From Acidobacteriota bacterium (GTDB taxonomy: Bacteria > Acidobacteriota > Vicinamibacteria > Vicinamibacterales > CAVVIG01), in assembly GCA_023265155.1 (NCBI GenBank), contig JAHFUL010000002.1:36188-78967 (forward strand): a stretch of DNA of 42,780 bases, given 5' to 3'. Position 1 is the stretch's first letter. Every line of letters starts with the position of its first letter. The notes beneath the pieces were generated by a model that had not been told where the DNA came from, did not search any database, and saw nothing but the letters and a program-made list of their open reading frames with translations. Shown in pieces: positions 9,914-39,988 of the stretch. Made by a program: the position numbers and the translations under genes.

Positions 9914-10618
9914 TACGTGCGGGACGACGTGGTCGTCGCCCGTCCTGAAGCTGACACGATACCGGCCGATGTCGGCCGCGCCTGGCACGCTGACGGTGAA
10001 GGGCGCCTCGGCACCAGGCATGAGGTCGTTGGCCTCGACTACGGCCCGTCCGGTCGTGACAACAGCCCCCGCACTATTGAACAGTAGCACTACCGCGGTG
10101 AGATGGGGGACGTCAATGCCGTTCGCCGGGTTGCGCACGACGCCATGGACGGTCAGACGATCGGCACTCCGATCGTGACCGAGCGCGACGAGCTCGATCG
10201 GCGCGCTCACCGCTCGATCGGCGACGGCAGAACCCGCTGAGCCCAGGGACCCCAGCGAACCCAGCGAACCCGGTGAACCCAGCGAACCCGGTGAACCTAC
10301 AGTCCCCTTATGCCCTACAGGCAGGACGAGGGCAAGCAGGATGACGGTTCCGACGATCAATCCGCCGGCCGCGACAGCAATCGCCATTGGCGAATGCCCT
10401 TCGGACTCCTCATCGACGACAAACATGTTGGCGGCGCGCCGGAGTCCTGGGACCGGTTGAGCGGAAGGCCAGCCTTCATCCCCGATTTCAGCAGCGAGTG
10501 CCGCGATCCGCGCCTCAGACCGGCGCCGCTCGTTACGCACGGAATGCCACGCAATAGCGCTCATCGCGGCGGCCAGACCCAGGGAGGCGAAGGTGATGAG
10601 GATCAGCATGCTATTCAT
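9893..10618 (-). CDS. Membrane protein with C-terminal FxLYD-like beta-sandwich domain
   Basis: Two hydrophobic segments, a GS[PL] repeat linker, then TVHGVVRNP...VVLLFNSAGAVV...LMPGAEAPFTV. Confidence 0.7.
   Translation of the reverse strand: MNSMLILITFASLGLAAAMSAIAWHSVRNERRRSEARIAALAAEIGDEGWPSAQPVPGLRRAANMFVVDEESEGHSPMAIAVAAGGLIVGTVILLALVLPVGHKGTVGSPGSLGSPGSLGSLGSLGSAGSAVADRAVSAPIELVALGHDRSADRLTVHGVVRNPANGIDVPHLTAVVLLFNSAGAVVTTGRAVVEANDLMPGAEAPFTVSVPGAADIGRYRVSFRTGDDHVVPHVDKRDGA
10230..10298 (+). repeat. In-frame 9-bp tandem repeat (GAACCCAGC/GAACCCGGT), 8 units
   Basis: Read on the minus strand as GSPGSLGSPGSLGSLGSLGSAGS. Confidence 0.9.
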
Positions 10619-10623
10619 GGGGG

Positions 10624-11664
10624 TTACCGCATCTTGAACTCGACTGACACTTCCACGATGACGTCGACGAGCGTGCCCAGTCGGCGGGCCGGCGAGAATC
10701 GCCACTGTCGTACGGCCTGAACCGCGCGGTCGTTGAGCGCTGACGAAGAGAGCCCCTTGAGAATCCTGACGTCGCCGACCGAGCCATCGCGTCGCACGAC
10801 GATTTCCATGTCGACGGTGCCTTCCCTGCCGCTCCGCCTGGCATCTTCGGGGTAGTCTGGCTTGACCTCGGTCAGCAGGCGGGGTGGTTCGATCCCGGAG
10901 CCAGGGCGGAACGGCCCTCCGCCCGTGCCGCCGCCCGAACCGGCGCCGATCCCGGATCCCCGTCCCTCACCGATTCCCGTCCCGGCTCCGCTGCCCACTC
11001 CCGCGCCGGTCCCGCGGCCGTTGCTCTCCTTCTCTGAGCGTGCCTCTTCCAGGATTCCGATGCGATCCTGAGTATCCGCCGGCGACACCGCAACAGGGGC
11101 CACAATCCTGGGCAATGCTTCGGCGCGGAGCGGTGGAGGGGGTGGTTCGGATGCCTTGACCTCCGGTTCCATCGGTGGTGGAGGCCGGCGAATCGGCAGC
11201 GGACTGCTGATGGCCCGCCTGCCTTCGCGACGAGCCTTCGGGGGTGGCGTCTTCTGAAGCAGTCCACCGCCGCCGCCTCCGCCACCGGGCCCCGGCGATG
11301 CCACGTACACCAACCGCATCTTTGTGAGCGGACGTTCGTCGGGAGCAAGGGTGGTCGCGGTTGGGGCGAGATCAAGGGTGGTGACCAGAATCACCGCTGC
11401 GATGACAACCGCGTGCAGCGTTCCGGATACGGCGAGTCTGACGCCGCCGCGACGAACCGGCGCGCTCGACGCGAAGATCGAGAAAAGAGAGCCTGGAGCG
11501 CGAACCGGCTCACGACGAAGCCTCCGAGCAAGGCGAACGGCATGCGCGTGGGGGATGACGGCGTCCGCGCCGCCGGCCGCCTCGATCGCACGCGCCTCGG
11601 GGACGCCGGCCGCTCGGGCAATCTCCGATGGCGTGTAGACGTCGATGACTGGACCAAGGTGCAT
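10624..11664 (-). CDS. tonB: TonB-family energy transducer
   Basis: TM anchor with SxxxH-type motif (VSGTLHAVV), Pro/Gly-rich linker, and TonB C-terminal domain PDYPEDARR...EGTV...DGSV...AVRQWRFSPA. Confidence 0.9.
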   Translation of the reverse strand: MHLGPVIDVYTPSEIARAAGVPEARAIEAAGGADAVIPHAHAVRLARRLRREPVRAPGSLFSIFASSAPVRRGGVRLAVSGTLHAVVIAAVILVTTLDLAPTATTLAPDERPLTKMRLVYVASPGPGGGGGGGGLLQKTPPPKARREGRRAISSPLPIRRPPPPMEPEVKASEPPPPPLRAEALPRIVAPVAVSPADTQDRIGILEEARSEKESNGRGTGAGVGSGAGTGIGEGRGSGIGAGSGGGTGGGPFRPGSGIEPPRLLTEVKPDYPEDARRSGREGTVDMEIVVRRDGSVGDVRILKGLSSSALNDRAVQAVRQWRFSPARRLGTLVDVIVEVSVEFKMR

Positions 11665-11687
11665 GGTGGCAGGAATCACTGCAGCGA

Positions 11688-11703: not shown

Positions 11704-11861
11704 CGGCAGCGCTGGGGCCGGCCTGATTTTCGGCAGGTTTTTCAGGGCTTTTCAAACGATCCCGCATGACTCCGGCACCGAGCCGTCGCTCGGGCTGTGC
11801 TCTCGTCGTGACAAGCTGTCACCTAATCCCATCTCGGCTCATCGTTGCATCATTGCCATGA

Positions 11862-11933
11862 GCCTCTCAGCTTTCAGCTTTCGGTCCTCAGCTTTCCGCT
11901 TTCGGTCCTCAGCTCTCAGCTCTCGGTCCTCCG
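11862..11933 (+). repeat. Heptamer tandem repeat tract (CTTTCAG/CTCTCAG/TCCTCAG), about 10 units
   Basis: ctctcag ctttcag ctttcgg tcctcag ctttccg ctttcgg tcctcag ctctcag ctctcgg tcctccg. Confidence 0.9.
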
Positions 11934-12036
11934 AGGTTCGCCGCAGCCCTCTTTGCCTTCGCCTTTCCTACCTTCGGTTTCACCCTCCTCCCTGAGTCCT
12001 TCGCCCTGTCAGTGAACCTGAGCATAGACTAGCCCC

Positions 12037-15208: not shown

Positions 15209-16456
15209 GTGAAGCGGGTGCCACCGCGCGCATTTCTGACGGTCTGTCTGCTGACCGCGTCGGTGCAGGCCCAGGCGCCCGCCCCGCCCGGTCAGCTGCC
15301 GCCGTTGCCGCTGACGCAACTCGATGAGCGAGCGCTCGCGGCCGATCTCGATAACCGGACGTTCACGCTGATGTTTGCCCAGCCGGTTCCGATTCACGAT
15401 CTCCTGCTGCTTCTCGTGCGCGGAACGACGCTCAGCGTCGTTCCCGCGCCGGACATCGCGGGAACCTTTATCGGCGAGCTCAAGAGCGTGACCGTGCGCC
15501 AGGCGCTCGGGTGGATTCTTCCACCGCTCGGCCTCGACTACTCGATCGAGGGGTCGTTCATCAGGGTCTTCCACCGTGAACCCGGCACCAGAATCTTCAG
15601 CATCAACTACATCGCCACCGAGCGCACCGGCGACTCGGTCATCGGCGGATCCCGCGACTCGGCCGGAGGTTCCGCGCGGGTGACCAGCACGACGGGCTCG
15701 GATATGTTCGCCGAGCTGGCAAAGAGCGTCGGCACGCTGTTGTCCGATCGCGGCGTCTTCAGCATCGACCGGCGAGCGGGTCTGCTGCAGGTCACCGATT
15801 TTCCCGAGCGCCTGGACGCCGTTTCGCAGTATCTCGACGCGGTTCAGGAGCGCGTCCATCACCAGGTTCAGATCGATGCCAGCATCGTCGAAGTCGAGCT
15901 CAATGACGTCAATGGAGCCGCCGCGCAGACACTGGATTGGACGGCACTCGCACGCGCCGGTGTCGAGGCGGGCAGCCCGCCGGGCGCGAGGCCGTTGATC
16001 AACGGCCTGCGCGTCTCCGACGTCTCGCGCTTTTTCACGGCCCTCGCGACACAGGGCAAACTGTCGGTGCTCGCGCAGCCGCGCGTGCTGGCGCTGAACA
16101 ACCAGCCGGCAATTGTACGCGGCACCACCACGGCCGGCGGCGACGTCGAGGAGATCACGCTGTCGGTCACGGCTCAATCGGCGGACGGCATGGTGATGCT
16201 GAGTCTCAGCCCGATCGTGACCGTGCGCGCGGCCGAAGCGAACCGGAACGGGGCCGGCACGACGACCCGGGAGGCCGACACGCTGGCTCGGGTACGCGAC
16301 GGTGAAACGATCGTCCTCGCAGGCTTTACGCGCGACCGCGAGACGCGCGAGCCGAGGAGCGGCGGCATTACGGGAGGATGGTTCGGCCGCACGACGGTGG
16401 TGACGAAGAAGCGAGTCGAGCTCCTGATTCTGCTGACGCCGCGCATAGTGTCCTGA
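15209..16456 (+). CDS. Secretin, MshL/GspD-like
   Basis: Signal peptide; TRIFSINYI (MshL-type N-domain); QVQIDASIVEVEL; LAQPRVLALNNQPA; ARVRDGETIVLAG; ELLILLTPRIV. Confidence 0.88.
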   Translation: MKRVPPRAFLTVCLLTASVQAQAPAPPGQLPPLPLTQLDERALAADLDNRTFTLMFAQPVPIHDLLLLLVRGTTLSVVPAPDIAGTFIGELKSVTVRQALGWILPPLGLDYSIEGSFIRVFHREPGTRIFSINYIATERTGDSVIGGSRDSAGGSARVTSTTGSDMFAELAKSVGTLLSDRGVFSIDRRAGLLQVTDFPERLDAVSQYLDAVQERVHHQVQIDASIVEVELNDVNGAAAQTLDWTALARAGVEAGSPPGARPLINGLRVSDVSRFFTALATQGKLSVLAQPRVLALNNQPAIVRGTTTAGGDVEEITLSVTAQSADGMVMLSLSPIVTVRAAEANRNGAGTTTREADTLARVRDGETIVLAGFTRDRETREPRSGGITGGWFGRTTVVTKKRVELLILLTPRIVS

Positions 16457-16457
16457 C

Positions 16458-17813
16458 ATGTACGAAGACTATTACGGCCTCGCCGAAAAACCGTTCAGCC
16501 TGACGCCGGATCCGAAGTATCTCTACCGGAGCCAGTCTCACGCCAACGCCTTCGAGCTGCTGCAGTACGCGATCGAACGCCGTGAAGGGTTCGTGGTCGT
16601 CACGGGCGACATCGGCACCGGAAAGACCACCCTGTGCCGTGCCCTGCTCGAACAGATCGATCGCAACACGTTCACCGCGCTCGTGCTCAACCCGTTCCTC
16701 TCCGAAGAGGACCTGCTCAAGCGCATCCTGCAGGACTTCGGCGTCATTTCCCGGGACGACCTGAAGGCCGGCCGCACGGCCGGCGTGACCAAGCAGGACA
16801 TGATCGACACCCTCTACGAATTCCTGCTTGGGCTCGTCCCGCTCAAAGCCGGCGCGGTGCTCGTCATCGACGAGGCGCAGAATCTTCCCCACCATGTCCT
16901 CGAGCAGATTCGCATCCTGTCGAATCTGGAGACCGACAAGGAGAAGCTGCTGCAGATCATTCTGGTGGGGCAGTTGAATCTGCGGACGCTGCTGCGATCG
17001 CCTGAACTGCGTCAGCTCGATCAGCGCGTGTCGATCCGCTACGAGTTGCAGCCGCTCGACGAGGAGACCGTCGCGGCGTATGTGGCGCACCGGTTGACGA
17101 TCGCCGGTGGATCGGCGGCCGTCGCGTTCACTGCGAAGGCACTCGCGCAGGTCCATCGGCTGTCTGGCGGTGTTCCCCGGCTCATCAACCTGATTTGCGA
17201 TCGCGCCCTTCTGGCGGGATTCTCGTTGAGGGCCAGCCGCATCACCCCGGAGATGGTGCGGCATGCGGCAGAGAGTCTTGATCTCCCGTCGGCGGCGCTG
17301 CCTCGTGCCAAATGGCTGACGCGCCGCGCGCCGCTTCCCGTCGGTGCCGCAGTGGTGTTGCTCGGCGCCGCGCTGGCCGTGGGCGCGAGCGCGCTTCTGT
17401 ACGAGCGCCTCGAGATGGATGCCCTCGAGGCCAGCACGACCCCTTCAACGGCTGCGGTGCCCGAGCGCATCGGCGTCCCGGTGGCCAGCGACACTCATCT
17501 GCCGTCCGCCGCGCCGAATCGTCGTCTGCCACGCGACGCGGCGCTGACGATCCTCGTCGGGTCGTATCCGTGGCCGGACGGGGACTCGGAGATCCGATCG
17601 GTGACGGCCTGGCTCGAGGCGACGGGCTATCACGTCTACTACGTTCAGGTCGACCTGGGCAGTCAGGGTATCTGGCGGCGAGTGCTCGCTGGGGCGTACA
17701 CTGACCCGAACGTGGCCCAGGTCGAAGTGGCGCGCATGAACGCGGCGGCACCGGCGCTGGAGGCCCGGATCGTCACGTCGGCGATGGCAAGGGGAGCGGA
17801 AACGCGCCAGTGA
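16458..17813 (+). CDS. ExeA/MshM-family AAA ATPase with TM segment and C-terminal SPOR-like domain
   Basis: MYEDYYGLAEKPFSLTPDP, Walker A GDIGTGKT, IDEAQ, LVGQ, GGVPRLINLICDRAL; then a TM segment; then ILVGSY...WRRVLAGAY. Confidence 0.9.
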   Translation: MYEDYYGLAEKPFSLTPDPKYLYRSQSHANAFELLQYAIERREGFVVVTGDIGTGKTTLCRALLEQIDRNTFTALVLNPFLSEEDLLKRILQDFGVISRDDLKAGRTAGVTKQDMIDTLYEFLLGLVPLKAGAVLVIDEAQNLPHHVLEQIRILSNLETDKEKLLQIILVGQLNLRTLLRSPELRQLDQRVSIRYELQPLDEETVAAYVAHRLTIAGGSAAVAFTAKALAQVHRLSGGVPRLINLICDRALLAGFSLRASRITPEMVRHAAESLDLPSAALPRAKWLTRRAPLPVGAAVVLLGAALAVGASALLYERLEMDALEASTTPSTAAVPERIGVPVASDTHLPSAAPNRRLPRDAALTILVGSYPWPDGDSEIRSVTAWLEATGYHVYYVQVDLGSQGIWRRVLAGAYTDPNVAQVEVARMNAAAPALEARIVTSAMARGAETRQ

Positions 17814-19000
17814 GTGTCATTCTGGACGCGCTGCGACGAAAGTCGGGTCGCGACGGCGCGCCCGCAGACCCTGGAGACCCTGCAGACAATCTCCAGACCG
17901 TTCGATCGGAAGCAGTCATGGCGACGCTCGGTTACCCGCGTCGCGAAGGCAGGCCACGCAACACGAAGGGGCTGATCGTCCTTGGGTCGGCGGCGGTCGT
18001 CCTTGGTTTCATTGCCATCGCGCTCCCGGTCAACTACTTCGCGCGTAAATCGCCACCGTCGACGGTCAAACCGGCTCCGGCGAACGTGCCACCAGCGGCC
18101 GCGCCTTCGCCGCCCGTGGCACCTCAAGGCGCACCCGCCGTGCCGTCTGCTGCGTCGCCTCCGCCGGCGCGTCCGTTGACCCCGGCGCCATTCACGGCCT
18201 CGGCCGGTTCCCGAGCTTCAGTGGCGACCCCGTCGCCAGAGCCCGCAGTGTCCCCGGTGCCCACAGGGTCGTCGGCGCAGAGTCGAACGACGCAGACGCC
18301 GTCGATGCCACGGCCCGCACCGCAGGCGCCGCCGGCTCCGCGTACGACAACCGCGACCCCTCAACGGTCACCCGCGCCGGCGCCAGGTCCAGTGACGCCA
18401 TCGCCCGCAGCGAATGGACCGGTCACTCCGCCGCGGGCCGATCATTTCGGGCTCGCGCTGTACTACCACCGCGTCGGCGACTTCCCGAACGCGCTGGCTC
18501 AGTACACGCTTCTGCTCGAGCAGAACGAAGCAAGCGCGGAAGTGCACAACAATCTCGGAATTCTGTACCAGGACCATGGGGACCTCGAGGACGCCACGCA
18601 GCAGTTTCAGCGTGCGCTCGCGCTCGAGCCTCGATACGCCAAGGCACACAACAACCTTGGCGTCGTGTGGATGCGGGGCGGGCGCCTCGAGCAGGCAGCC
18701 GCGGAGCTCCGCATGGCGCTCACGATTGACGCGCGCAGCGTCGAAGCGCTCGTCAATCTCGCGCTGGTGCAGCAGTCGTCCGGGCGGACGGCGGACGCTC
18801 GCGATTTACTGCAACGTGCGGTGGCACTCGATCCGCGCCATCCCGGCTCTCACTACAATCTCGCTGTCGTGGCCGACGGCAGCGGCGACACGCCAACAGC
18901 CGTCGAACACTACCGCGCCTTCCTGAAGTTCGGTGCCGTGACCCGTCCCGACCTCGCCGCGCAGGTGCGCGCCCGCCTCACGGCGCTTGGGTCCACCTGA
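17810..19000 (+). CDS. Membrane-anchored TPR protein (MshN/ExeB-like N-terminus)
   Basis: MSVILDALRRK start, one TM, Pro/Ala-rich linker, about 5 TPRs (VHNNLG, AHNNLG, ALVNLA, SHYNLA). Confidence 0.85.
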   Translation: MSVILDALRRKSGRDGAPADPGDPADNLQTVRSEAVMATLGYPRREGRPRNTKGLIVLGSAAVVLGFIAIALPVNYFARKSPPSTVKPAPANVPPAAAPSPPVAPQGAPAVPSAASPPPARPLTPAPFTASAGSRASVATPSPEPAVSPVPTGSSAQSRTTQTPSMPRPAPQAPPAPRTTTATPQRSPAPAPGPVTPSPAANGPVTPPRADHFGLALYYHRVGDFPNALAQYTLLLEQNEASAEVHNNLGILYQDHGDLEDATQQFQRALALEPRYAKAHNNLGVVWMRGGRLEQAAAELRMALTIDARSVEALVNLALVQQSSGRTADARDLLQRAVALDPRHPGSHYNLAVVADGSGDTPTAVEHYRAFLKFGAVTRPDLAAQVRARLTALGST

Positions 19001-30182: not shown

Positions 30183-30809
30183 TCAGCTCCGCCGGAGGAT
30201 GACGCGCGCCGGCGCGCCGTCCGCGCCGACGATGCGCAAGGGGAGACAGAACATGTCATAGATTCCGGGCTCGACGTCGCGGAGATTCAGTCCTTCAATC
30301 ACGATCGTGCCGCCGCCGAGCAGAATATGGTGAGCGGGCGCGCCCGGCTTCTTGAATTCCTCGACCGACAGATAATCCACACCGACGACCTTCACGCCGT
30401 GATCGACCAGGTAACGGGCTGCCGCCTCGGTGATGCCGAGGTAGTCCGTGCGGAATTCAGATGATCCCCAGAGGTGGGAGTTGTGGGTCTTGAAGAGCAC
30501 GCGGAGATCCTCGGAGAGGTCGAGGGCTGCGAGATCGCCGGGGGCGATGGCTTTCCGGTTCAGCAGTTCGACGACGCGGGTTCGACCGAGGAGCAGCTCG
30601 AGCGCCAGCGACTCGACCCCGGGTCCGTCGTCGAAGAAGTGGCGGGGAGCGTCCACGTGCGTGCCGGTGTGCGCGCTCAAATGAAGCGTCGACACGTTAG
30701 AGCTGTCGCCACGGGCGATCCGCTTGATCGGCTCGACGTTGAAAGGCGTGTTCCCGGGGTAGACCGGAAGGTTCGCGTCGAGCGGCACCGTGACGTCGAT
30801 GAGCTTCAT
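30183..30809 (-). CDS. Cyclase-family metal hydrolase (kynurenine formamidase-like)
   Basis: HTGTHVDAPRHF signature, GVDYLS, IEGL, DGAPAR. Confidence 0.92.
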   Translation of the reverse strand: MKLIDVTVPLDANLPVYPGNTPFNVEPIKRIARGDSSNVSTLHLSAHTGTHVDAPRHFFDDGPGVESLALELLLGRTRVVELLNRKAIAPGDLAALDLSEDLRVLFKTHNSHLWGSSEFRTDYLGITEAAARYLVDHGVKVVGVDYLSVEEFKKPGAPAHHILLGGGTIVIEGLNLRDVEPGIYDMFCLPLRIVGADGAPARVILRRS

Positions 30810-30909
30810 GGCACGAACCGGCTGGCGATGATAGCACGCACGCGAGAACCCGCCCGGGGACACGCCACGGCCCCGAAGGAACCGACTGAAGTGCTGATGC
30901 TAGAACGGT

Positions 30910-30938
30910 TTGACATGGCGGGATCGGCCGCCTATGAT
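30910..30938 (+). promoter_or_regulatory. Sigma70-type promoter
   Basis: TTGACA (30910-15), 17-nt spacer, TATGAT (30933-38); GGAG SD before the ATG at 30983. Confidence 0.8.
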
Positions 30939-30982
30939 GAGCTGTTTAAATATCGTTTTTCTGTTACGCTGGAGACGATTTT

Positions 30983-32086
30983 ATGGTCATTGCGCGACGC
31001 GCGTTGGTTCTCGCTTCCATCGTGGCTCTCCTTGGTTCCGCGACGCTCGCGGCGCAGCGAGGCAACACAGCCCAGGGAGGCGGCCGGGGAGGACGTGGGG
31101 GCGGCGGTCTCACAGAAGCCCAGCGAAAAGCCATCCAGGCGATTACCGCGCTGGCTGACGACGCGGCGGCGGGACGTCCCGCACCAAACGATATGTCACT
31201 GGCGTGGGTCCACGACGATGTGCTGAAGGTGGCGCAGGAGGGGCAGGCGTTCGTGCCCTTCATCGTCACGATCGACCCCTCCAAGGTGGCTCCTGGCCCC
31301 GTGTCGGTTTACTGGCGCGTTGTGTCGAAGAACGCGCCTCCTGCGCCCCCTCCGTCAAGCGACAAGGACAAGAAGAACGACAAGAAAGCGCCGACGCCCC
31401 CGCCGTCCTTTGCATACGAGGCGCTCACCTCGGCGACCGTTGCTGCCGGACAGCAGCCGATGCGCATCAGCCGCTCGTTCACAACTCTATCGGGCAACTA
31501 CGACGTGTACGTCGTGGTGAAGGAAGGTTTGCCGACGGGAGACAACAAGAAGCCCGACAAGAATGCCCCGGCGCCGAAAGCCTCGGTCATCAGGCAGCCG
31601 ATCACGGTCCCGGATTTGTGGAATGGCGAGCTCAACACGAGCTCGGTCATCATTGCCGAGAAACTCGAGCCGCTGCCGGCGCCGTTGTCCGCGCAGGAAA
31701 AGATCAACCGCCCGTACGCGCTCGGCGGGATCGAGATCATTCCGTACACACGGACGAAATTCGTCAAGAAAGAAGAGCTCGACGCGTTCATCCTGATCTA
31801 CAACGCCAAGACCGACGCGGCCAGCCAGCCGGACGTGAAGGTCGAGTTCAACTTCTACTCGAAGCAGGCCGGCGGCGAGAAGTTCTTCAACAGCACGCTT
31901 CCGGCGAACCTGAATGGCCAGACCCTGTCGGCCCAGGACTTGGCCGCCGGGCAGTTGCAGGCGGGACAGGCCGTCCCGCTGGCGAGCTTCCCGGAGGGTG
32001 ACTACCGTCTGGAAATCAAGGTGACCGACAACGTCGCGAAGAAAGAACTGAAGCGCGACGTGAACTTCTCGGTGACCGGTTCGTAG
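30983..32086 (+). CDS. Secreted/periplasmic beta-rich protein of unknown function
   Basis: Signal peptide, two Lys/Pro linkers, and an Ig-like C-terminus (VPLASFPEGDYRLEIKVTD...VNFSV) reminiscent of the C-terminal part of acidobacterial GWxTD/VWA proteins. Confidence 0.75.
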   Translation: MVIARRALVLASIVALLGSATLAAQRGNTAQGGGRGGRGGGGLTEAQRKAIQAITALADDAAAGRPAPNDMSLAWVHDDVLKVAQEGQAFVPFIVTIDPSKVAPGPVSVYWRVVSKNAPPAPPPSSDKDKKNDKKAPTPPPSFAYEALTSATVAAGQQPMRISRSFTTLSGNYDVYVVVKEGLPTGDNKKPDKNAPAPKASVIRQPITVPDLWNGELNTSSVIIAEKLEPLPAPLSAQEKINRPYALGGIEIIPYTRTKFVKKEELDAFILIYNAKTDAASQPDVKVEFNFYSKQAGGEKFFNSTLPANLNGQTLSAQDLAAGQLQAGQAVPLASFPEGDYRLEIKVTDNVAKKELKRDVNFSVTGS

Positions 32087-32113
32087 CCGTAACCCCGCCG
32101 AGGCGAGTGAACG

Positions 32114-34051
32114 ATGAGAAGCACCATCAGACTGACAGCGGCGGCGGTCGGCGGGTTGGTGCTTCTGGGAACGTCCGCGATCGTGAGCGCGCAGGGCACC
32201 GGAGTGCGGGTGCAGCCTGTCAGCTGGACGGCTCCGATCGCTCCGATCACTCCGGGTTCCATCGAGGGCGTGGTGAGCGATGAGAAGGGCTCGCCGATTG
32301 CCAGAGCATTGGTGTCGGCTCTGGGCACCACGACCACATTCACGACCACCGATCAGAAGGGCCGATTCGAGCTGCGGTCTCTTCCGCCCGGCCGGTATTT
32401 CGTCCACGCGCGTCTGAGTGGATACGCCGCGGCGCGACCGCAGCTGGTCGAAGTTCACGCCAGCTCCCGTGCCGCGACGTCGATCGCGCTCCGTCGCGCT
32501 GATGTGGCCTCGGCGCCCGTTCTGGCCGCCGGCCTGGGGGCCAAGCCGACGAGTCCTGATCCCACCGATACCGACGCGTCCAATCCTTCCAACGATCGGG
32601 CTCCCGACACCGTCGCCGATCCGGATGAAACGGCCTGGAGGCTCAACCACGGGCGGAAAACCATCTTGAAAGACGCGTCGTATTTCGACGGACTTTTCGC
32701 GAGCGGAGCCCCCGCCACTGTTCTGAACCCTCTCGACTATGCTGCCCGGGCGGCTGGCTCGTCCTTGCGGCTGGCGTCGAGCTTCATCAGCGACACACCG
32801 TTCTCCGGTCAGGTCAACCTCCTGACGAGCGGTTCGTTCGAGGCGCCACGAGAGCTCTTTTCCCCGGGCACGGTTTCGCGCGGCATCGCGTATGTCAGCC
32901 TGTCAGCGCCGGCCGGTTCACAGGCGGACTGGACCGTCCGCGGCGCCTTGACCCAGGCAGACATCTCTTCCTGGATTGTTGCCGGGTCGTACGAGACCCG
33001 CGCGACGGCTCACCAGCAGCGTGGGTTCGGCCTTTCGTACAGCACCCAGCGCTACGACGGCGGCAATCCCCTGGCGCTTCGCGAAGTCACCGACGGGAGC
33101 CGCAACGTCGGCGAGATCTACGGGTTCGAGACGCTTACGCTGATGCCGGCGATGTCACTGACCTACGGCGGACGGTATGCGCAGTACGACTATCTCGAAG
33201 GCCGCAACCTGATCAGCCCAAGGGTCGAACTGGTCCTGACCCCCGGCGAGAACGTGCGCATCAACGGAGAATTGTCGCGACGGGCGCTCGCCCCTGGGGC
33301 CGAAGAGTTCCTGCCACCCGGCGACTCTGGGATCTGGCTCCCGCCGCAGCGGACGTTTTCGGCGCTCGAGCCGGGCCGCCCGCTGCAAGCCGAGCAGACC
33401 CTGAACGCCGCCGTTGGTGTCGAACGCGATTTCGGCGCGTCCACCCTCTCCTTCCGGGCGTTTCACCAACGCGTGAGCGATCAGCTGATGACGCTGTTCG
33501 GCGCCGAGATGCCGGATCAGCCGAGCGCCAAGCTTGGACACTACTTCGTCGGCAGCGCGGGGGACGCGAAGGCCACCGGCGGTTCGGCCACATTCGAGAC
33601 CGCCCTGTCCAAGCGGGTTCGCGGGTCCGTCGAGTACTCGCTCACGAACGCGCGGCTCAGACCCGTCGGCGACCTGAAATACATCATCTTGATGGCGCCC
33701 TCTGCCGTGCGCCCGGAAGCCGAACAAATCCACGATGTTGTGGCGTCCATCGAAACGAGCGTGCCCGAGACCGCCACGAGAATCCTGATGCTCTATCGCA
33801 TCGGCAACGGGTTCGCCCACGGATCGCAGGTGTCCACCGGCACAACCACGAAGCGCGCGCTGGACTCCCGCTTCGACCTGCAGGTCCGCCAGTCGCTGCC
33901 ATTCATGGATTTCCGGACGGCTCGGTGGGAGATGCTCCTCGCGGTCCGCAATTTCTTCCGCGAAACAACGGCCGACCAGTCCATCTACGATGAGCTGCTC
34001 GTCATTCGGCCGCCGAAGCGCATCGTCGGCGGTATCACGATGCTTTTCTAG
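32114..34051 (+). CDS. Outer-membrane beta-barrel protein with N-terminal carboxypeptidase-regulatory-like domain (TonB-dependent receptor-like)
   Basis: GSIEGVVSDEKGSPIARA...TTDQKGRFELRSLPPGRY; amphipathic strands (SPRVE, AVRN); C-terminal Phe (GGITMLF). Confidence 0.78.
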   Translation: MRSTIRLTAAAVGGLVLLGTSAIVSAQGTGVRVQPVSWTAPIAPITPGSIEGVVSDEKGSPIARALVSALGTTTTFTTTDQKGRFELRSLPPGRYFVHARLSGYAAARPQLVEVHASSRAATSIALRRADVASAPVLAAGLGAKPTSPDPTDTDASNPSNDRAPDTVADPDETAWRLNHGRKTILKDASYFDGLFASGAPATVLNPLDYAARAAGSSLRLASSFISDTPFSGQVNLLTSGSFEAPRELFSPGTVSRGIAYVSLSAPAGSQADWTVRGALTQADISSWIVAGSYETRATAHQQRGFGLSYSTQRYDGGNPLALREVTDGSRNVGEIYGFETLTLMPAMSLTYGGRYAQYDYLEGRNLISPRVELVLTPGENVRINGELSRRALAPGAEEFLPPGDSGIWLPPQRTFSALEPGRPLQAEQTLNAAVGVERDFGASTLSFRAFHQRVSDQLMTLFGAEMPDQPSAKLGHYFVGSAGDAKATGGSATFETALSKRVRGSVEYSLTNARLRPVGDLKYIILMAPSAVRPEAEQIHDVVASIETSVPETATRILMLYRIGNGFAHGSQVSTGTTTKRALDSRFDLQVRQSLPFMDFRTARWEMLLAVRNFFRETTADQSIYDELLVIRPPKRIVGGITMLF

Positions 34052-34096
34052 ATATTGTTCCCCTCCACGGCCCGATTGGATCCAAACTATTGAATG

Positions 34097-34122
34097 AGTG
34101 AATCCAGTCAACTGGATTCACT
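34097..34122. promoter_or_regulatory. Perfect 12-bp inverted repeat, candidate operator
   Basis: AGTGAATCCAGT-ca-ACTGGATTCACT in the AT-rich gap before the kinase. Confidence 0.6.
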
Positions 34123-34273
34123 GTCGTTTCCCTACGTTTTTTGTTAGCGCCGTGCGGCGTCTCGCGTGGCCGGGCTCACAATGTCTAACGTGGCGGTGTC
34201 TCCCTCAAACCGCGGCCTTCGGGACGACTCAGACTCCTTGGTGCGCTCCGAGCCTGTCGACAGGTCTGCATTG

Positions 34274-37180
34274 ATGGCCACGAAGGAGACCCGATGGTTC
34301 GCATGGGGCCGCTCCGTTCTGGCGGTCGCGCTGGTTCTGGTTCTGCTGGGGCTAGGAATCTCGAACATCGCCCTTCGTGCACGCTGGCATCCGGTCGAGG
34401 ACGGGGTGCTTTGGGGTGCGCGGACAGAGGGCGTGACGGCTGTCGAGGTCGCGCCGGCCTCCGGAGGTGCCGCCGCCGGCATCCAACGAGGCGACGTGCT
34501 GCTCGCTGTCGACAGCGTGCCGGTGCGCACCCCCGACGAGGTACTGGACTATCAACGGCACGCTGACCCGGGCCGTCCACTCACCTACACCCTCGCCCGA
34601 CTTGGCGACCAGAGGGTTCTCGACGTTTCTCTTGCGAGCGCGCCGAGACTCGGATCGCTGTATTACGTGCTCGCAACGGTCGGTCTCTTCACGCTGTTGG
34701 TCGGTGCGTCGGTCCGCCTGCGCCGGCCGCGCGACCAGGCGACGCTCCATTTCTTCTGGCTGTGCGTCGCCTTCTTTGGCACGTTCACGTTCTCGTTCAA
34801 TGGACCGCTCGATCGACTGGACTGGGTGTTCTACTGGGGCGATGCCATTGCCACGGTCATGCTGCCTCCGCTGCTGCTGCACTTTACGCTGGGGTTCCCT
34901 CAGCGCCCGTCCGCGCTCGATCGGTCCCGGTGGTCGCCGGTGTTATTGCCGATTTACCTGCCCGCGCTTCTCATCGCCGTCGCGCGGATCGTCGCCGTGT
35001 CGCGCGCCGCGGCAGATGGGCCGGCGTTTTCGCGGACGCTCGGCCTGCTCGACCGGGCAGAGCCGCTGTATCTGTTCACGTGCGCGATGGCCGCCGTCCT
35101 TGTTCTCGCCCGCGCGTCCGAAGAGATCGAGTCGCTGACGGGACGGCGCCAATTGCGATGGATCGCCTGCGGCACCGTGCTCGGTGTGGGTCCGTTCGCG
35201 TTGGGATACGCGCTCCCATGGGCGCTCGGTTCCGACCCGCCGTTCGGGCTGCAGCTCACGGCCATTCCGCTCTGCCTCGTGCCCCTCACCTTCGCGTCGG
35301 CGATCGTGCGCTATCGCCTGCGCGACGTGGAAGTGATCGTGAAGCGCGGCCTCGGTTATGCGGCGTTCCTGGGCGCGACGGCCGGGTTGTTTTTTGCCCT
35401 TCGCAGAACCGTGGGCTTCACCTTCGGCAACGACGCGGACGCGCACAACTGGGTCGTGGCATTTCTGGCGACCATTGTCGTGGTCCTATTGGCGCAGCCC
35501 GTCAAGGCGGCCGTCCAGACCGCGCTCGACCGCGCCTTCTATCGCGATCGCTACGATTACCGGCGTGCGCTCGTGGCGTTTGCGCGCGACCTCAACAGCG
35601 ATCTCGACATCAATCGGCTGAGCCAGCGCCTCGTGGATCGGATCGTCGAAACGCTGGTGCTCGATCGGATGGCGCTGATGCTCGCCGACGACCGCCACGG
35701 CAACTTCCGCGCGGTCGATGATTACGGGTTCGCCGGCGTCGTCCCGGCGCTCGAGCGCGGGTCGTCCTTCACGGCACGTCTCGACACCGGGCACATTGTG
35801 GCGCTCGACGGGTCGGATCCCATTGCGGTCGCCAGGTTCTCGGCGGAGGACGTTGAGTTCTGGCGCGATCAGGGGATCTACTACTTCGTGCCCTGCATTC
35901 ATGAAGGGGCGGCGATCGCCGTGATGGCGCTCGGACGAGAGGAAACCGATGAGCCCTTCAACAGCGAGGACCTCGCCCTCCTGGTGGCTGTCGCCGGCCA
36001 GGTGGCGACGGCCATCGAGAACGGGCGGTTGTACCGGCAGCTTCATGTGAAGGCCGAGGAGCTCGGCCGCCTCCGAGAGTTCAACGAGAACATTCTCGAG
36101 TCGCTCGAGGATGGTCTGATCGTGTTCGATGAGGACGAGCGAGTCGTCCGCTGGAATCGTGCCCTCGAGCACTTTTACGGCATCAGGCAGGCAGACGCGA
36201 TGGGCCGGACGCTGGAGGAGCTGTTCGACGTCCCCTTCGTCGAAGCGCTCCGCGCCGCTCGTCGAGAGAATCCGCTCGGCGCCAGGCTCTTCAAGGTGCC
36301 GCTGACCGCGCGGCGGCCGCGCCCCGAAGCCGGCGCGTCGGCCTCCGACCCGCTGCGGCTGCTGGTGAATGCGACGGTCGTTCCGCTTCGAGGCGGCGCG
36401 AATCCGGAGGCGGTTGCTGGAACGATTCTCCTCCTGGAAGACCTCACCGATCGCGTGCGGCTGGAAGAGCAGCTGCAGATTTCCGAGAAGATGGCGTCGA
36501 TCGGTTTGCTGGCTGCCGGCGTCGCGCACGAGGTCAACACGCCGCTGACGGGCATCTCGAGTTTCACGCAGATGCTGCTCGAAGGCGCCGTTCCGGGCGA
36601 TCCCAGGACGATCCTGCTCGAGAAGATCGAGCGGCAGACCTTCCGCGCGGCCAGGATCGTGAACGGCCTCCTCACGCTGTCGCGTCCGGGCACCGCCGGC
36701 AGCGAGCGGACGAATGTCGACCTCAACGACGTGATCACCGATGTCTTCTCGCTGCTCGAGCATCAGTTCACGGCCGGCAAGATCAAAGTACGCCGCGAGC
36801 TGTCACCGGATCGGGTGGACGTCCTCGGCATCGAGCACCAGCTTCAGCAGGTGTTTCTCAATCTGTTTCTCAACGCACGCGACGCGATGCCGCGCGGCGG
36901 CTGGCTCACGGTGACGACGCGGGCCGAGGGGGATCAGTTCATCGCCGAGGTGTCGGATACGGGCTCGGGAATTCCACCGGAGCACCTGGCGAGGATCTAC
37001 GATCCATTTTTCACGACGAAGGCGATCGGCCGTGGCACGGGCCTCGGCCTCTCGATTTCGTACGGCATCGTGCATGAGCACGGCGGGTCGATTCGCTGCG
37101 ACAGTGGCGTGGGGCAGGGAACCCGATTCACAGTGATGCTGCCGGCAGCGCGGACCGTCGCGCGCAGCGCGGCGCAGTGA
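34274..37180 (+). CDS. Membrane sensor histidine kinase: PDZ, multi-TM, GAF, PAS, HisKA/HATPase
   Basis: PDZ segment VAPASGGAAAGIQRGDVLLAVD; many TMs; GAF FNSEDLALLVAVAGQVATAIEN; PAS VRWNRALE; H-box AHEVNTPL; NLFLNARDA; DTGSGI; DPFFTTK; GTGLGL. Alternative starts at 34166 and 34181. Confidence 0.94.
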   Translation: MATKETRWFAWGRSVLAVALVLVLLGLGISNIALRARWHPVEDGVLWGARTEGVTAVEVAPASGGAAAGIQRGDVLLAVDSVPVRTPDEVLDYQRHADPGRPLTYTLARLGDQRVLDVSLASAPRLGSLYYVLATVGLFTLLVGASVRLRRPRDQATLHFFWLCVAFFGTFTFSFNGPLDRLDWVFYWGDAIATVMLPPLLLHFTLGFPQRPSALDRSRWSPVLLPIYLPALLIAVARIVAVSRAAADGPAFSRTLGLLDRAEPLYLFTCAMAAVLVLARASEEIESLTGRRQLRWIACGTVLGVGPFALGYALPWALGSDPPFGLQLTAIPLCLVPLTFASAIVRYRLRDVEVIVKRGLGYAAFLGATAGLFFALRRTVGFTFGNDADAHNWVVAFLATIVVVLLAQPVKAAVQTALDRAFYRDRYDYRRALVAFARDLNSDLDINRLSQRLVDRIVETLVLDRMALMLADDRHGNFRAVDDYGFAGVVPALERGSSFTARLDTGHIVALDGSDPIAVARFSAEDVEFWRDQGIYYFVPCIHEGAAIAVMALGREETDEPFNSEDLALLVAVAGQVATAIENGRLYRQLHVKAEELGRLREFNENILESLEDGLIVFDEDERVVRWNRALEHFYGIRQADAMGRTLEELFDVPFVEALRAARRENPLGARLFKVPLTARRPRPEAGASASDPLRLLVNATVVPLRGGANPEAVAGTILLLEDLTDRVRLEEQLQISEKMASIGLLAAGVAHEVNTPLTGISSFTQMLLEGAVPGDPRTILLEKIERQTFRAARIVNGLLTLSRPGTAGSERTNVDLNDVITDVFSLLEHQFTAGKIKVRRELSPDRVDVLGIEHQLQQVFLNLFLNARDAMPRGGWLTVTTRAEGDQFIAEVSDTGSGIPPEHLARIYDPFFTTKAIGRGTGLGLSISYGIVHEHGGSIRCDSGVGQGTRFTVMLPAARTVARSAAQ

Positions 37181-38691
37181 GCATGGTCACATCCGCGCAA
37201 ACGCGAAAAGGCACGATCCTCGTCATCGACGACGAAGAGATCATGCGGGAGATTCTCGAGACGCTCCTCGGTCGTGAGGGGTACGACGTGCGGTGCGCGG
37301 CGTCGGGCCCGGAGGGCCTCGATCTCGCGCGGGCGCTGCCCTTCGATGCCGCGCTCGTCGACATCATGATGCCCGGACTCGACGGCATCGCGACCCTCGA
37401 CGAACTGAAGCGGATCGATGAGGACCTGGCCGTCATCATCATCACGGCGTACGCGTCGGTCGGCAGTGCGATCGCCGCCATGAAGAGCGGCGCCTTCGAC
37501 TACATCGCCAAGCCCTTCAAGAACGAAGAAGTGCTCGTGGTCGTCCGCAACGCGATGGAGCGCCGGCGGCTCGTGCACGAGAACCGATCGCTCCGCCAGA
37601 ACATCCAGGAGCGCTATCACAAGTTCGCGAACATCATCGGCCGCAGCCCCCGCATGCGACAGGTGTTCGATCTCATCATTCAGGCGGCGCCCAGCCGGTC
37701 GACGATTCTCATTCAAGGCGAGAGCGGCACCGGCAAGGAGCTCGTGGCGCGCGCGATCCATGCCAATTCGTCGCGGTCGGACCGCTCGTTCGTCGCCGTG
37801 AATTCGGGGAACCTCCCGCCGGACCTCCTCGAGTCGACGCTCTTCGGCCATGTGAAGGGCGCGTTCACCGGAGCGGTCTACGCCAAGAAGGGGTTCTTCG
37901 ATCTCGCGGATCGAGGCAGCATCTTCTTCGACGAGATCGGCAACGTGCCGCCGGAAACGCAGGCCAAGCTGCTTCGCGTCATTCAGGAGCGCGATTTCAT
38001 GCGGCTGGGCGGCATGGAGACGATCAAGGTCGACGTGCGGATCATTGCCGCGACCAACGTGGATCTGCGCCAGATGATGGAAGAAGGCCGCTTCCGCGAG
38101 GACCTGTTCTATCGGCTGCACGTGATCTCGATTCAGCTGCCGCCCCTTCGCGATCGCAAGGACGACATTCCGCTCCTCGTTCAGCATTTTTTCCTGAAGT
38201 ACGGCGAGGACAACAGGAAAACGGACCTGGAACTGACCCCCGACGCCCTGGACCTGCTCACCGCGTACGACTGGCCCGGGAACGTCCGGGAGCTCGAGAA
38301 CGTCATCGAGCGCGCCGTCGTCTTGACGCCAGGACCGCGCATTGGGGTCGAGCTCGTGCCGGAGCACGTCCGGAAGGCGCCGAATTTCGCCATGCCGACG
38401 TTCGTCATGCCGCCAGAAGGCATCTCGTTCAAGGACGTCATCACGGATTTCGAAAAGCGGCTGATCGAGTCGACGCTCGAGACGGCGGGCGGTGTGCAGA
38501 AGCGGGCGGCGGAGCTCCTGCACATCAAGCCAACGACGCTCAATGAGATGATCAAGCGGTACGATATCCGGCCGCGCCGGAAACGTCACGTCAACGGAAG
38601 CGGGAGTGACCGGGAGCCGAACGCCGGCACCGAGGCGCCCGAGCTGCCGTCCCCCGTTGGCGATCCTCCGCCAGCGCTCAGCAACAAATAA
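37177..38691 (+). CDS. Sigma54-dependent NtrC-family response regulator (REC-AAA-Fis HTH)
   Basis: IDDE, DIMMPG, KPF; GESGTGKE; intact GAFTGA; FREDLFYRL; WPGNVRELEN; AAELLHI. Confidence 0.96.
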   Translation: MSMVTSAQTRKGTILVIDDEEIMREILETLLGREGYDVRCAASGPEGLDLARALPFDAALVDIMMPGLDGIATLDELKRIDEDLAVIIITAYASVGSAIAAMKSGAFDYIAKPFKNEEVLVVVRNAMERRRLVHENRSLRQNIQERYHKFANIIGRSPRMRQVFDLIIQAAPSRSTILIQGESGTGKELVARAIHANSSRSDRSFVAVNSGNLPPDLLESTLFGHVKGAFTGAVYAKKGFFDLADRGSIFFDEIGNVPPETQAKLLRVIQERDFMRLGGMETIKVDVRIIAATNVDLRQMMEEGRFREDLFYRLHVISIQLPPLRDRKDDIPLLVQHFFLKYGEDNRKTDLELTPDALDLLTAYDWPGNVRELENVIERAVVLTPGPRIGVELVPEHVRKAPNFAMPTFVMPPEGISFKDVITDFEKRLIESTLETAGGVQKRAAELLHIKPTTLNEMIKRYDIRPRRKRHVNGSGSDREPNAGTEAPELPSPVGDPPPALSNK

Positions 38692-38704
38692 CGCCCGCCT
38701 GTCC

Positions 38705-39988
38705 CTACCGTGCGTGTCGAAGCTTCGCGAAGACGCGCTCGTACTTGTCGAGCACGACATCCCACTGATAGTTCTTCTGGACGTACTCCCGCCCGTTGCG
38801 TCCCATCGTCTGTCTGAGCTGGCCGTCGTCGACGAGCAGCCGAAGGCATTCGACGAACTCATCGCGATTGGCGTAATAGAGCCCCGCGTTGCTTCGGACC
38901 GAATGTTCGACCAGTACGTCGCTGCGCGCGTTGGCGAGCACCGGTGTTCCAACCGAAAACGCCTCGAGCGCCAGAAGCGAGAGGCTTTCGTAGGGAGACG
39001 GGCAGACGACGACCGTCGCGGCTTCGAGCGCCTGAACGCGCTCGGGATCGGACAACAGACCGGCGAAGCGGATGAATGGCTCCTCCGGCAGGGCCATGAG
39101 CTTGACGCCCATCAGCGCGAGCGTGGCGTCGCCGCCGTCCTTCACGTAGGCGCTGAAGTATTCGATCAGCTCTTCGCAGCCTTTTCCGGGATCGATGCGG
39201 CCCCCGTAGAGCGCGATGGGGCCGTGCAGACGATGACGTCGGCGGAACACGGCGCCGCGGGCCATGAGATGGGATGGGAAATCGCGGATCGAACCGTGTT
39301 CGCCCGCCGGCTCCTCCTCTGTGTCGTGTGCGAGCGACAGGTCGTCGGTTGCAGGCATCCGAGGATACGGCTGCGGCTGCGGCACGTCGACGCCAACGCC
39401 CACCACTTCCTCGAGAAGCGGCCGCTCACTGAACCGGCCCTGAACGAACAGCCGTTCGCTGTCGGTCAGATAGCAGAGCGCGGCGGGGCGCTTGAAGACG
39501 TCCTTGTAGATTTCGAGCTGAATCGCCGGTTCGTCGTGGGCGGTCGTGACGACCGCGCTCTTGGCGGGGTTCGCCTCCAGGCCAATCACCGTCGGCGCGT
39601 ACAGATAGGTGAAGAAGATCAGCACGTCGTACTGCTGCTCGGTCCGTCTGAGGTACTCGATGAGGGGCGGACACCACGGGCCCTGTTGCTGAAGCCACTC
39701 CAGTTCGTCCGCGCGGGTGTGCGGGTTGTTGTAGATCCACTCCGAGTAGCGGTTGAACGCGTCGATGTCCCGGACGCGCGCGTTCGGAAAACGGCGGATC
39801 GTGACGCCGCGAATCCGGTCGGTCCCCTCCGGATACACGTTCGCCCACGTGACGTAGTCCCGCGCGCACGTCGTCAGCACCTCCACGTCGTGCTCCGAGG
39901 CGAGCCGTTCCGCGACGAGGCGGCAGAGGTGTTCGGATCCGCCAAGGACTTCCGGTCCGTAGCGCTGGACGATGAACGCGAGCTTCAT
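38705..39988 (-). CDS. GT4-family glycosyltransferase
   Basis: GGSE, GGRIDPGKG, SPYESLSLLALEA, C-terminal YQW. Confidence 0.92.
   Translation of the reverse strand: MKLAFIVQRYGPEVLGGSEHLCRLVAERLASEHDVEVLTTCARDYVTWANVYPEGTDRIRGVTIRRFPNARVRDIDAFNRYSEWIYNNPHTRADELEWLQQQGPWCPPLIEYLRRTEQQYDVLIFFTYLYAPTVIGLEANPAKSAVVTTAHDEPAIQLEIYKDVFKRPAALCYLTDSERLFVQGRFSERPLLEEVVGVGVDVPQPQPYPRMPATDDLSLAHDTEEEPAGEHGSIRDFPSHLMARGAVFRRRHRLHGPIALYGGRIDPGKGCEELIEYFSAYVKDGGDATLALMGVKLMALPEEPFIRFAGLLSDPERVQALEAATVVVCPSPYESLSLLALEAFSVGTPVLANARSDVLVEHSVRSNAGLYYANRDEFVECLRLLVDDGQLRQTMGRNGREYVQKNYQWDVVLDKYERVFAKLRHAR

Follow-up and report, generated by a model that had tools for sequence, protein, structure and literature searches.

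A putative trans-envelope two-component system of Acidobacteriota combining a PDZ sensor kinase, a sigma-54 activator and an outer-membrane barrel

What might connect a secreted protein, an outer-membrane barrel, a sensor kinase with a PDZ domain and a sigma-54 activator when their genes lie side by side? The question is raised by positions 30910 to 38691 of a 42,780-nucleotide stretch (42.8 kb, hereafter the window) of contig JAHFUL010000002.1, which belongs to a 2.5-Mb, 66% complete genome assembly (G000) from the Vicinamibacterales. By its domain architectures and gene linkage, the unit encoded there is the Vicinamibacterales version of an Acidobacteriota-wide two-component system. We put at roughly 55% the probability that it is a trans-envelope system in which a PDZ kinase, an NtrC-type activator and a barrel act together, controlling the system itself and genes for Oar-like outer-membrane proteins (OMPs). 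Acidobacteriota belong to the most abundant bacteria of soil and encode a great many large TonB-dependent OMPs of the CarboxypepD_reg type, on whose regulation we know of essentially no work. Members of the phylum nearly all have the unit, usually in a single copy. It joins a DegS-like periplasmic PDZ domain to a phosphorelay and to sigma-54, and a candidate DNA site (ATCCA-N6-TGGAT) together with candidate target genes makes it directly testable.

In the mechanism that we propose, a polytopic kinase would expose an HtrA/DegS-type PDZ domain in the periplasm and phosphorylate an NtrC-type activator, the pair being genetically coupled to a dedicated OMP that would consist of a periplasmic CarboxypepD_reg domain and a plug-less barrel. 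The activator would most likely bind ATCCA-N6-TGGAT dyads arranged in tandem some 100 bp in front of -24/-12 promoters, and would switch on its own kinase-regulator operon as well as a subset of the large Oar-like TonB-type OMP genes. The PDZ domain would be the periplasmic input and would bind a peptide or beta-strand ligand, for which the partner barrel, imported peptides and unassembled OMP tails are candidate sources. The four genes, all in the same orientation as the first-pass annotation of the sequence had described them, are as follows (aa, amino acids; ORF, open reading frame).

30983-32086, + strand: gene 1, secreted protein, 367 aa (ORF call and signal peptide)
32114-34051, + strand: gene 2, outer-membrane protein, 645 aa (Pfam, AlphaFold2 and Foldseek)
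34274-37180, + strand (alternative GTG start at 34166): sensor histidine kinase, 968 aa from the ATG at 34274
37177-38691, + strand: NtrC-family sigma-54 activator (REC, AAA+ with GAFTGA, HTH_8)

The kinase start is more likely the ATG at 34274, since an identical database entry is 968 aa long. In the product of the longer ORF (34166-37180), Pfam places a PDZ domain (residues 86-156), HisKA_7TM (170-388), GAF, PAS, HisKA (9.1e-13) and HATPase_c (7.1e-26), and the H-box reads AHEVNTPL; by these domains it is a class I (HisKA) sensor histidine kinase, and the make-up noted at first sight (PDZ, multiple membrane helices, GAF and PAS) is confirmed, with HisKA and HATPase_c added to it. An AlphaFold2 model of the first 444 aa (predicted local distance difference test score, pLDDT, 83.8; predicted template-modelling score 0.78) gives the order first membrane helix, PDZ fold (about nucleotides 34403-34639), nine further helices. 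Those nine helices separate the PDZ fold from the cytoplasmic GAF domain, and the first of the nine leads into a strongly positive loop, RLRRPRD. The PDZ domain is therefore predicted to face the periplasm, because the number of helices between it and GAF is odd and the loop obeys the positive-inside rule, and the extracytoplasmic location that had been claimed for it stands as a prediction from the modelled topology.

Structure searches relate this domain to those of periplasmic proteases. The best Foldseek matches of the PDZ model are DegS PDZ domains (3gdv, 6ew9; 27% identity, root-mean-square deviation 1.6 Å, 86-89 columns), with the PDZ domains of DegQ and DegP next and all top matches at E 8e-6 to 3e-4; phmmer against PDB returned DegQ at 3.9e-6 and DegS at 1e-4 to 4e-4. 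Both comparisons agree that the kinase PDZ is of the HtrA/DegS-type fold. No Pfam protease family was found in the kinase at E<=0.01, so the protein does not qualify as an HtrA/DegS protease. Two sequence features show little or no variation throughout the phylum, namely a (D/E)G-x-x-W motif that immediately precedes the first PDZ strand and a G-D pair.

Such a fold brings to mind the reading offered in the first-pass annotation, a phosphorelay counterpart of the DegS/RseA/sigma-E response in which the PDZ domain would bind the C-terminal (aromatic-x-Phe) tails of unassembled OMPs and set off a sigma-54 envelope-stress regulon. We consider it rather unlikely. The 3gdv and 6ew9 structures of DegS were indeed solved with OMP peptides (YQF or YRF), and a periplasmic PDZ domain would be suitably placed to meet such tails. 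In DegS-type domains, however, the carboxylate-binding loop has the form x-hydrophobic-Gly-hydrophobic and carries a basic residue at a position that is acidic in the kinase loop, (D/E)G-x-x-W, whose third position is not Gly, so that the loop need not bind a free carboxylate. Nor does the logic of the circuit fit easily, in that misassembly which raised OMP synthesis would close a positive loop, unless tail binding inhibited the kinase. The idea could be recast as a feedback that throttles or boosts the synthesis of large TonB-type OMPs.

The partner of the kinase is more easily placed. Pfam finds Response_reg (6.4e-29), Sigma54_activat (5.6e-68) and HTH_8 (4.4e-10) in the regulator, and its sequence contains GAFTGA as well as a Walker A motif, GESGTGKE, so the earlier description of an NtrC-type activator with an intact GAFTGA is upheld and the protein is, on its domains and motifs, an NtrC-family sigma-54 enhancer-binding response regulator. 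The first 4 nucleotides (nt) of its gene are shared with the end of the kinase gene. The nearest NCBIfam models of the two proteins are AtoS/AtoC, NtrC and ZraSR, always with scores short of the equivalog cut-offs: the regulator stays below the cut-offs for AtoC (488.4 vs 714), NtrC (418.9 vs 558.6) and ZraR (395 vs 760), and the kinase below that for AtoS (268 vs 646). PrsK and PrsR of the XrtA/PEP-CTERM system also appeared among the NCBIfam matches and share with this pair the combination of a multi-pass membrane kinase and an NtrC-type regulator. That identity was rejected on score (136 vs 300 bits and 381 vs 503 bits), the PrsK model TIGR02916 matching just the C-terminal kinase core (136 bits); PrsK carries a GAF domain and is not known to have a PDZ domain.

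The outer-membrane protein upstream of the kinase had been described as a short beta-barrel ending in Phe. The ending is confirmed (GGITMLF) and the shortness is not: at 645 aa, the protein has room for a signal peptide, a CarboxypepD_reg domain and a linker ahead of its barrel of about 19 strands. Pfam matches CarboxypepD_reg (residues 49-126) and TonB_dep_Rec_b-barrel (217-499; E 7.2e-11). In an AlphaFold2 model (pLDDT 77), an N-terminal beta-sandwich (48-128) is followed by a disordered linker (131-169), helices of low confidence (170-227) and the barrel (231-644), whose roughly 19 strands were assigned by DSSP, so that a 22-strand barrel is not shown. The best Foldseek matches in PDB are Cir, PirA, FrpB and BtuB, with E of about 1e-12 and a template-modelling score of only about 0.32; on this and on the Pfam match, the barrel is related to those of TonB-dependent transporters. 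A Plug domain (PF07715) found no Pfam match in gene 2 or its homologues, and none is visible in the AlphaFold2 model.

Two parts of this protein are conserved in a way that could matter for signalling. One is a basic linker motif, WRLxHxRRxILKD (in gene 2, the peptide WRLNHGRKTILKD), which is kept across classes in an alignment of 47 sequences; it does not resemble a TonB box, and no TonB box was identified. The other is the tail, since the terminal Phe is invariant in 47/47 aligned homologues and all 19 of the sequences displayed end in hydrophobic-x-Phe. A tail of this kind is what the sensing of unassembled OMPs would call for, but a terminal Phe is generic to OMPs and does not single that mechanism out. 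A complex prediction for gene 2 (residues 44-645) with the PDZ domain gave 'no answer' (score 0.00), which counts neither for nor against binding. We hold as a tentative possibility, at less than even odds, that the plug-less barrel reports to the PDZ domain through its basic linker motif or its C-terminal tail, and that the sigma-54 partner of the kinase then activates its own genes and those of Oar-like OMPs via ATCCA-N6-TGGAT.

How far the barrel, the kinase and the regulator belong together was assessed across the phylum. The module of PDZ and membrane domain was matched in 248 of 301 sampled Acidobacteriota genomes (E<=1e-10; G049 and G024, both unpublished, are counted in), mostly in one copy and in ORFs of about 940-1010 aa, and the family comprises 2362 clusters at 50% identity (E<=1e-30), among them a member from Candidatus Fischerbacteria and a variant in which the PDZ-membrane-GAF module is fused to SpoIIE (PP2C) instead of a kinase core (P0253, 834 aa). 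Since P0253 joins it to a SpoIIE/PP2C phosphatase, the PDZ-membrane-GAF part appears to be a portable sensor module. Gene order was compared in a near set, the 80 closest loci, all from metagenome-assembled genomes of Vicinamibacterales type (some mislabelled), and in a distant set that samples other families and classes (40 loci). All near-set loci with enough flanking sequence preserve the succession gene 1, gene 2, kinase, regulator, yet this synteny is order-wide and is not independent evidence, because the neighbouring GlgC and glycosyltransferase genes are kept as well. The distant set is more informative. Here the regulator lies directly downstream of the kinase in 37/40 loci, and a co-oriented homologue of gene 2 lies directly upstream of it in 27 of the 39 assessable loci (16/20 and 11/19 in two successive batches). 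Thus the linkage of barrel, kinase and regulator, which on this comparison is the conserved core, reaches far beyond the Vicinamibacterales, and the expectation that these genes form a real envelope-spanning unit is borne out; of the four-gene order anticipated across the phylum, gene 1 is the part that fails (2/40 distant loci).

The link between barrel and kinase also shows in their absence. Five genomes without the kinase (95-100% complete) held no full-length homologue of gene 2 and gave solely matches to the CarboxypepD_reg domain, mostly in ORFs of about 1000 aa. In the opposite direction the dependence is looser, as the barrel is not adjacent to the kinase in 12/39 distant loci. When five kinase genomes of this type were searched, a full-length homologue was found elsewhere in two (G279 and G189), an N-terminal match to gene 2 in a 604-aa ORF in a third (G062), and no full-length barrel homologue in G207 and G287. 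The barrel is thus best regarded as a frequent accessory and not an obligatory one, given that it is missing beside the kinase in 12/39 loci and was not found in G207 and G287. In four of the loci without an adjacent barrel (L104, L105, L108 and L110), type II/IV secretion F genes, joined in L104 by an E gene, lie beside the kinase in divergent orientation.

It could be argued from such loci that there is no contact across the envelope at all, the barrel being just co-expressed or co-regulated, the input entering through the nine-helix domain or GAF/PAS, and the PDZ domain having a structural or scaffolding role. Conservation in the membrane domain, where many polar and aromatic residues are invariant, is no lower than in the PDZ domain, and the SpoIIE fusion puts the same sensor module to use with another output; both would fit that account, as would the genomes with a kinase and no barrel. 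Against it stand the barrel immediately upstream of the kinase in 27/39 loci from many families and classes, its missing full-length form in the five kinase-less genomes, and the near-invariance of (D/E)G-x-x-W throughout the phylum, which argues for a conserved ligand. On balance an absence of contact seems very improbable to us.

The neighbourhood of the distant loci suggests another kind of input. In 7/20 distant loci of the first batch, the regulator is followed by genes for ExbB-ExbD-(ExbD)-TPR, and a large gene of the type CarboxypepD_reg plus OMP_b-brl_4 (Oar-like) comes after the regulator in L098, L099 and L106. No sigma-54 promoter was found between the regulator and the ExbB or Oar-like gene in nine loci, whose spacers hold sigma-70-like TTGACTTG...TAnnnT motifs instead. 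In L086, L104, L105, L108 and L110 the next gene past the regulator, on the other strand, encodes an M1 peptidase; other peptidase genes occur near the kinase-regulator pair in L083 (M28) and L088 (M14), and oligopeptide ABC genes in L081; an S15 peptidase gene adjoins a predicted target in L123. The system might on these grounds sense nutrients, with the barrel admitting oligopeptides or other substrates, the PDZ or membrane domain sensing them and TonB-type transporters being induced, a logic that would be comparable to that of SusC/RagA-type loci. PDZ domains in general bind peptide C-termini, and the predicted targets described below resemble TonB-type transporter genes, so that the recurring ExbB/ExbD, peptidase and oligopeptide ABC genes would find a place in such a scheme. 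Energised uptake is doubtful, however, because the barrel has no plug and no TonB box was identified, and the peptidase neighbours vary by lineage, their frequency having no counted baseline. Nutrient sensing is in our view improbable.

The spacer between barrel and kinase in the window bears on the output of the system. Three features lie there.

34080-34095, strand not assigned: enhancer-like site 1, ATCCAAACTATTGAAT, 1 mismatch to ATCCA-N6-TGGAT
34102-34117, strand not assigned: enhancer-like site 2, ATCCAGTCAACTGGAT, exact palindrome that starts 22 bp after site 1
34239-34253, + strand: degenerate -24/-12 element TGGTGCGCTCCGAGC, 6/10 positions, GG and GC kept, sited like the sigma-54 promoter of relatives

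The two enhancer-like sites are the sole ATCCA-N6-TGGAT sites (<=1 mismatch) in the window. A hairpin at 34096-34121 had been considered as a terminator; it is unreported by the terminator scan and is better read as the dyad site. With the same tolerance, the dyad occurs at 19/36 distant loci and in 28/71 Vicinamibacterales sequences (window included), against 50/3000 random windows; it is often doubled at a distance of 20-22 bp, and its proximal copy mostly lies about 90-110 nt upstream of the -24 element. That element belongs to a sigma-54 promoter, TGGCA[C/T]-N5-TTGC, which is found 31-105 nt upstream of the kinase start in the distant loci and reaches at least 9/10 positions in 19/38 of them, compared with 11/2000 random 360-nt windows. 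Many Vicinamibacterales have a variant -24/-12 element such as GGGTATGAGCTTTGC (7-8/10); a first sigma-54 scan of 80 Vicinamibacterales loci at <=1 mismatch had returned no conserved site, the GGGTAT-type variant having escaped it. Dyads in tandem, some 100 bp in front of a -24/-12 promoter, are the classical NtrC enhancer layout. By these matches an NtrC-like enhancer lies between the barrel and kinase genes, accompanied in most lineages by a -24/-12 promoter, a feature that is new here. Sole dependence of the genes on a sigma-70 promoter, as first assumed, does not hold, the kinase-regulator pair having its own sigma-54 promoter in most lineages.

The same elements were then sought elsewhere in the genomes. 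Counts of the exact palindrome in five near-complete genomes were 7, 1, 9, 9 and 1, against 1, 1, 1, 1 and 0 for a reversed control. Four of these sites are the kinases' own, and 10 of the other 23, mainly those with AT-rich spacers, were inspected. A sigma-54-like site lies within about 130 bp in five of the 10, and all five precede genes of the type CarboxypepD_reg plus OMP_b-brl_4 or TonB_dep_Rec (the elements of L122 are in an atypical order). A combined pattern, TGGAT-N85-112-TGGYAY-N5-TTGC, was matched 73 times in 41 genomes of the class that had supplied these sites, which is another than that of the window, as opposed to 7 times by the reversed control. By coordinates, 14 of the 73 matches are the kinase's own promoter; 57 of the rest were examined, two in the unpublished genome G049 being left out. 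A full dyad (<=1 mismatch) accompanies 10 of the 57, of which nine precede genes of the type CarboxypepD_reg plus OMP_b-brl_4 and one a further kinase (L142). Weaker dyads stand before three more genes of the same type (L131, L152 and L160), and the other 44 matches are intragenic or precede unrelated genes such as thyA. The family from which these targets would be drawn has 2-42 matches per genome, mostly 13-42.

Self-activation together with control of TonB-type OMPs is thus the likely output as judged from these cis-elements, because in the other class, and for full dyads, the pairing of enhancer and promoter otherwise precedes only Oar-like genes. OMP genes as targets would also suit a feedback on OMP assembly driven by unassembled tails. 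Oar itself is made up of a CarboxypepD_reg domain and a large barrel; the predicted target genes and those that follow the regulator in L098, L099 and L106 share this make-up, the comparison being one of domain descriptions only, whereas gene 2 differs from it in being much shorter and without a plug. In Myxococcus xanthus, Oar is reported to be a TonB-dependent transporter needed for the secretion of PopC (PMC6434023).

Several observations weigh against the trans-envelope system favoured here. The evidence for targets stems from another class than that of the window. The genome of the window itself yielded no further site that combines enhancer and promoter: its 28 loose palindromes include none credibly paired with a -24/-12 site, and its 26 candidates for a half-site plus promoter include none before a CarboxypepD_reg gene. 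The strict pattern, when applied to five complete or nearly complete Vicinamibacterales genomes, had the kinase promoter of G218 as its sole match. The -24/-12 element of the window is itself degenerate (6/10), so that self-activation may be weak or lost in its lineage. The dyads could moreover belong to another sigma-54 activator, of which the window's genome has at least 13. To these are to be added the acidic loop of the PDZ domain, the 12 distant loci with no barrel beside the kinase, and the genomes G207 and G287.

If the favoured system is set beside known ones, it shares features with several of them. NtrB/NtrC, AtoS/AtoC and ZraS/ZraR are alike in having a HisKA plus HATPase_c core and a regulator with REC, AAA+ (GAFTGA) and HTH_8, and the NtrB/NtrC type also has tandem dyads about 100 bp upstream of the -24/-12 promoter of its own operon. 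Unlike NtrB, the sensor described here would have a periplasmic PDZ domain and ten membrane helices besides GAF and PAS, and its gene is linked to that of a barrel. DegS-RseA-sigma-E of E. coli resembles it in the membrane-anchored periplasmic HtrA-type PDZ domain and the link to OMPs; the carboxylate loop of the kinase PDZ has a different sequence from that of DegS, the Pfam protease is missing, and phosphotransfer to a sigma-54 activator would replace proteolysis of an anti-sigma factor.

In Fec signalling, a TonB-dependent transducer acts through an anti-sigma factor and an extracytoplasmic function (ECF) sigma factor, and Bacteroidota have a SusC-like version. FecA-FecR-FecI and SusC-like systems are similar to the present one in that a barrel of the TonB-transporter family is linked to an inner-membrane sensor and an activator of transporter genes, with ExbB/ExbD neighbours in some lineages and TonB-type OMP genes as predicted targets. 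They differ in that the barrel here has no plug and, by Pfam, no N-terminal domain beyond CarboxypepD_reg, and in that a histidine kinase and sigma-54 take the place of anti-sigma and ECF sigma factors. The literature found on PDZ kinases, HisKA_7TM and acidobacterial TonB proteins contained no description of an architecture of barrel, PDZ kinase and sigma-54. The consulted portion of a PDZ census gives the ComP type, with HisKA_3, as the sole kinase-containing PDZ family (PMC6411480), and the HisKA_7TM (PF16927) papers, in the parts available, concern archaeal or eukaryotic kinases. Should the PDZ domain indeed read the outer membrane or its partner barrel, the system would be a third trans-envelope solution beside regulated proteolysis (DegS, FecR) and the RcsF/IgaA relay.

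Gene 1 stands apart from the three other genes. It had been called a secreted Ig-like protein; the signal peptide supports 'secreted', and 'Ig-like' depends on weak Pfam matches (E<=0.1) among 45 members of its family, namely Y_Y_Y in 28/45, the TcfC E-set in 12/45 and Big_13 in 9/45, no Pfam family being above threshold in gene 1 itself. A protein-atlas search returned unnamed acidobacterial clusters and GWxTD at 0.77, which was used as a lead. In hhalign, gene 1 aligns with the GWxTD protein at L107:9778-11505 (probability 97.4%, E 1.2e-11, 268 columns), over the C-terminal 277 residues that come after the GWxTD domain of the latter. The GWxTD domain (PF20094) has no match in gene 1, and the 20 families listed for its 45 aligned homologues (E<=0.1) do not include this domain. 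By this profile alignment gene 1 is a homologue of the C-terminal (Ig-like) half of GWxTD proteins, minus the GWxTD domain. Its profile matches two of the 40 distant loci, L102 and L107, in both cases proteins with a GWxTD domain, and L107 keeps the full order of GWxTD protein, barrel, kinase and regulator. Gene 1 is thus, by its distribution, outside the conserved core and mostly confined to Vicinamibacterales. No literature on GWxTD was found.

Upstream of gene 1 lies one further feature of the unit.

30910-30938, + strand: sigma-70-type promoter TTGACA-17-TATGAT, 5' of gene 1, 11/12 positions match

This is the consensus promoter of the earlier description, and it is well founded: at 11/12 it is unique in 30800-38900 (mean in shuffled sequence, 0.9), and an equivalent, TTGAC[T/A]TG...TAnnnT, occurs 5' of gene 1 in 67/68 sequences, window included. 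A sigma-54 promoter at this place was found in none of the 68 at <=2 mismatches. A related motif, TTGACTTG-N(13-16)-TAnnnT, turns up in different Acidobacteriota classes, apparently as a housekeeping promoter, with sites in the regulator-ExbB spacers of L084, L089-L092, L095 and L096 and 5' of gene 1 (67/68), and its recurrence suggests an extended -35 consensus, TTGACTTG, in Acidobacteriota. On the opposite strand upstream of gene 1 are a cyclase-family gene, a GlgC-like gene and an enolase gene; downstream of the regulator, and convergent with it, are three GT4 glycosyltransferase genes. Two DNA runs labelled groundwater metagenome (X1 and X2) contain 95% and 70% of the words sampled from 30850-38750. 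A metatranscriptome run (X4) yielded two exact short contigs, one in the kinase (35525-35705) and one in the regulator (37182-37392), for which DNA carry-over is possible; they do not show that kinase and regulator are co-transcribed.

Two sigma-54 promoters before other envelope genes of the window, a BON gene and a TonB gene, had been proposed as targets of the regulator. The BON promoter TGGCACCTCATTTGC (6792-6777, - strand) is sound, being one of five perfect sites in the 2.5-Mb assembly, and the TonB site (CGGCAA-N5-TTGC) is weak and falls outside a 2-mismatch sigma-54 scan. The enhancer dyad was found at neither site (<=1 mismatch, whole window). Both genes are therefore dropped as targets, their assignment to the regulator being unfounded with no enhancer present and at least 13 sigma-54 activators in the genome, and this also takes support from a stress regulon triggered by OMP tails. 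The BON site precedes a gene for a secreted double-BON-like protein (6167-6792, - strand) that no activator gene adjoins. The TonB_C gene shares an operon (8794-11679, - strand) with genes for a 270-aa protein without a Pfam match and a VWA protein, and short tandem repeats (gagctgaggaccgaaagc-like) lie upstream of it at 11860-11960.

Elsewhere in the window, 15209-19000 (+ strand) holds genes for a secretin (PF00263), an AAA_22 ATPase, which we take to resemble ExeA, and a TPR protein, after which comes an acetyl-CoA synthetase-like gene; the cluster may be a secretion or pilus-related module. Two more of the perfect sigma-54 promoters of the assembly are on other contigs. One, at C59:2788 (+ strand), has an activator domain match (C59:1713-2213) about 600 nt before it and is followed by a gene that by eye reads as type IV pilin-like (FTLIELL N-terminus). 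The other, at C68:8341 (+ strand), shares its contig with an activator (C68:3024-3524), and the protein encoded after it looks, again by eye, GvpA-like.

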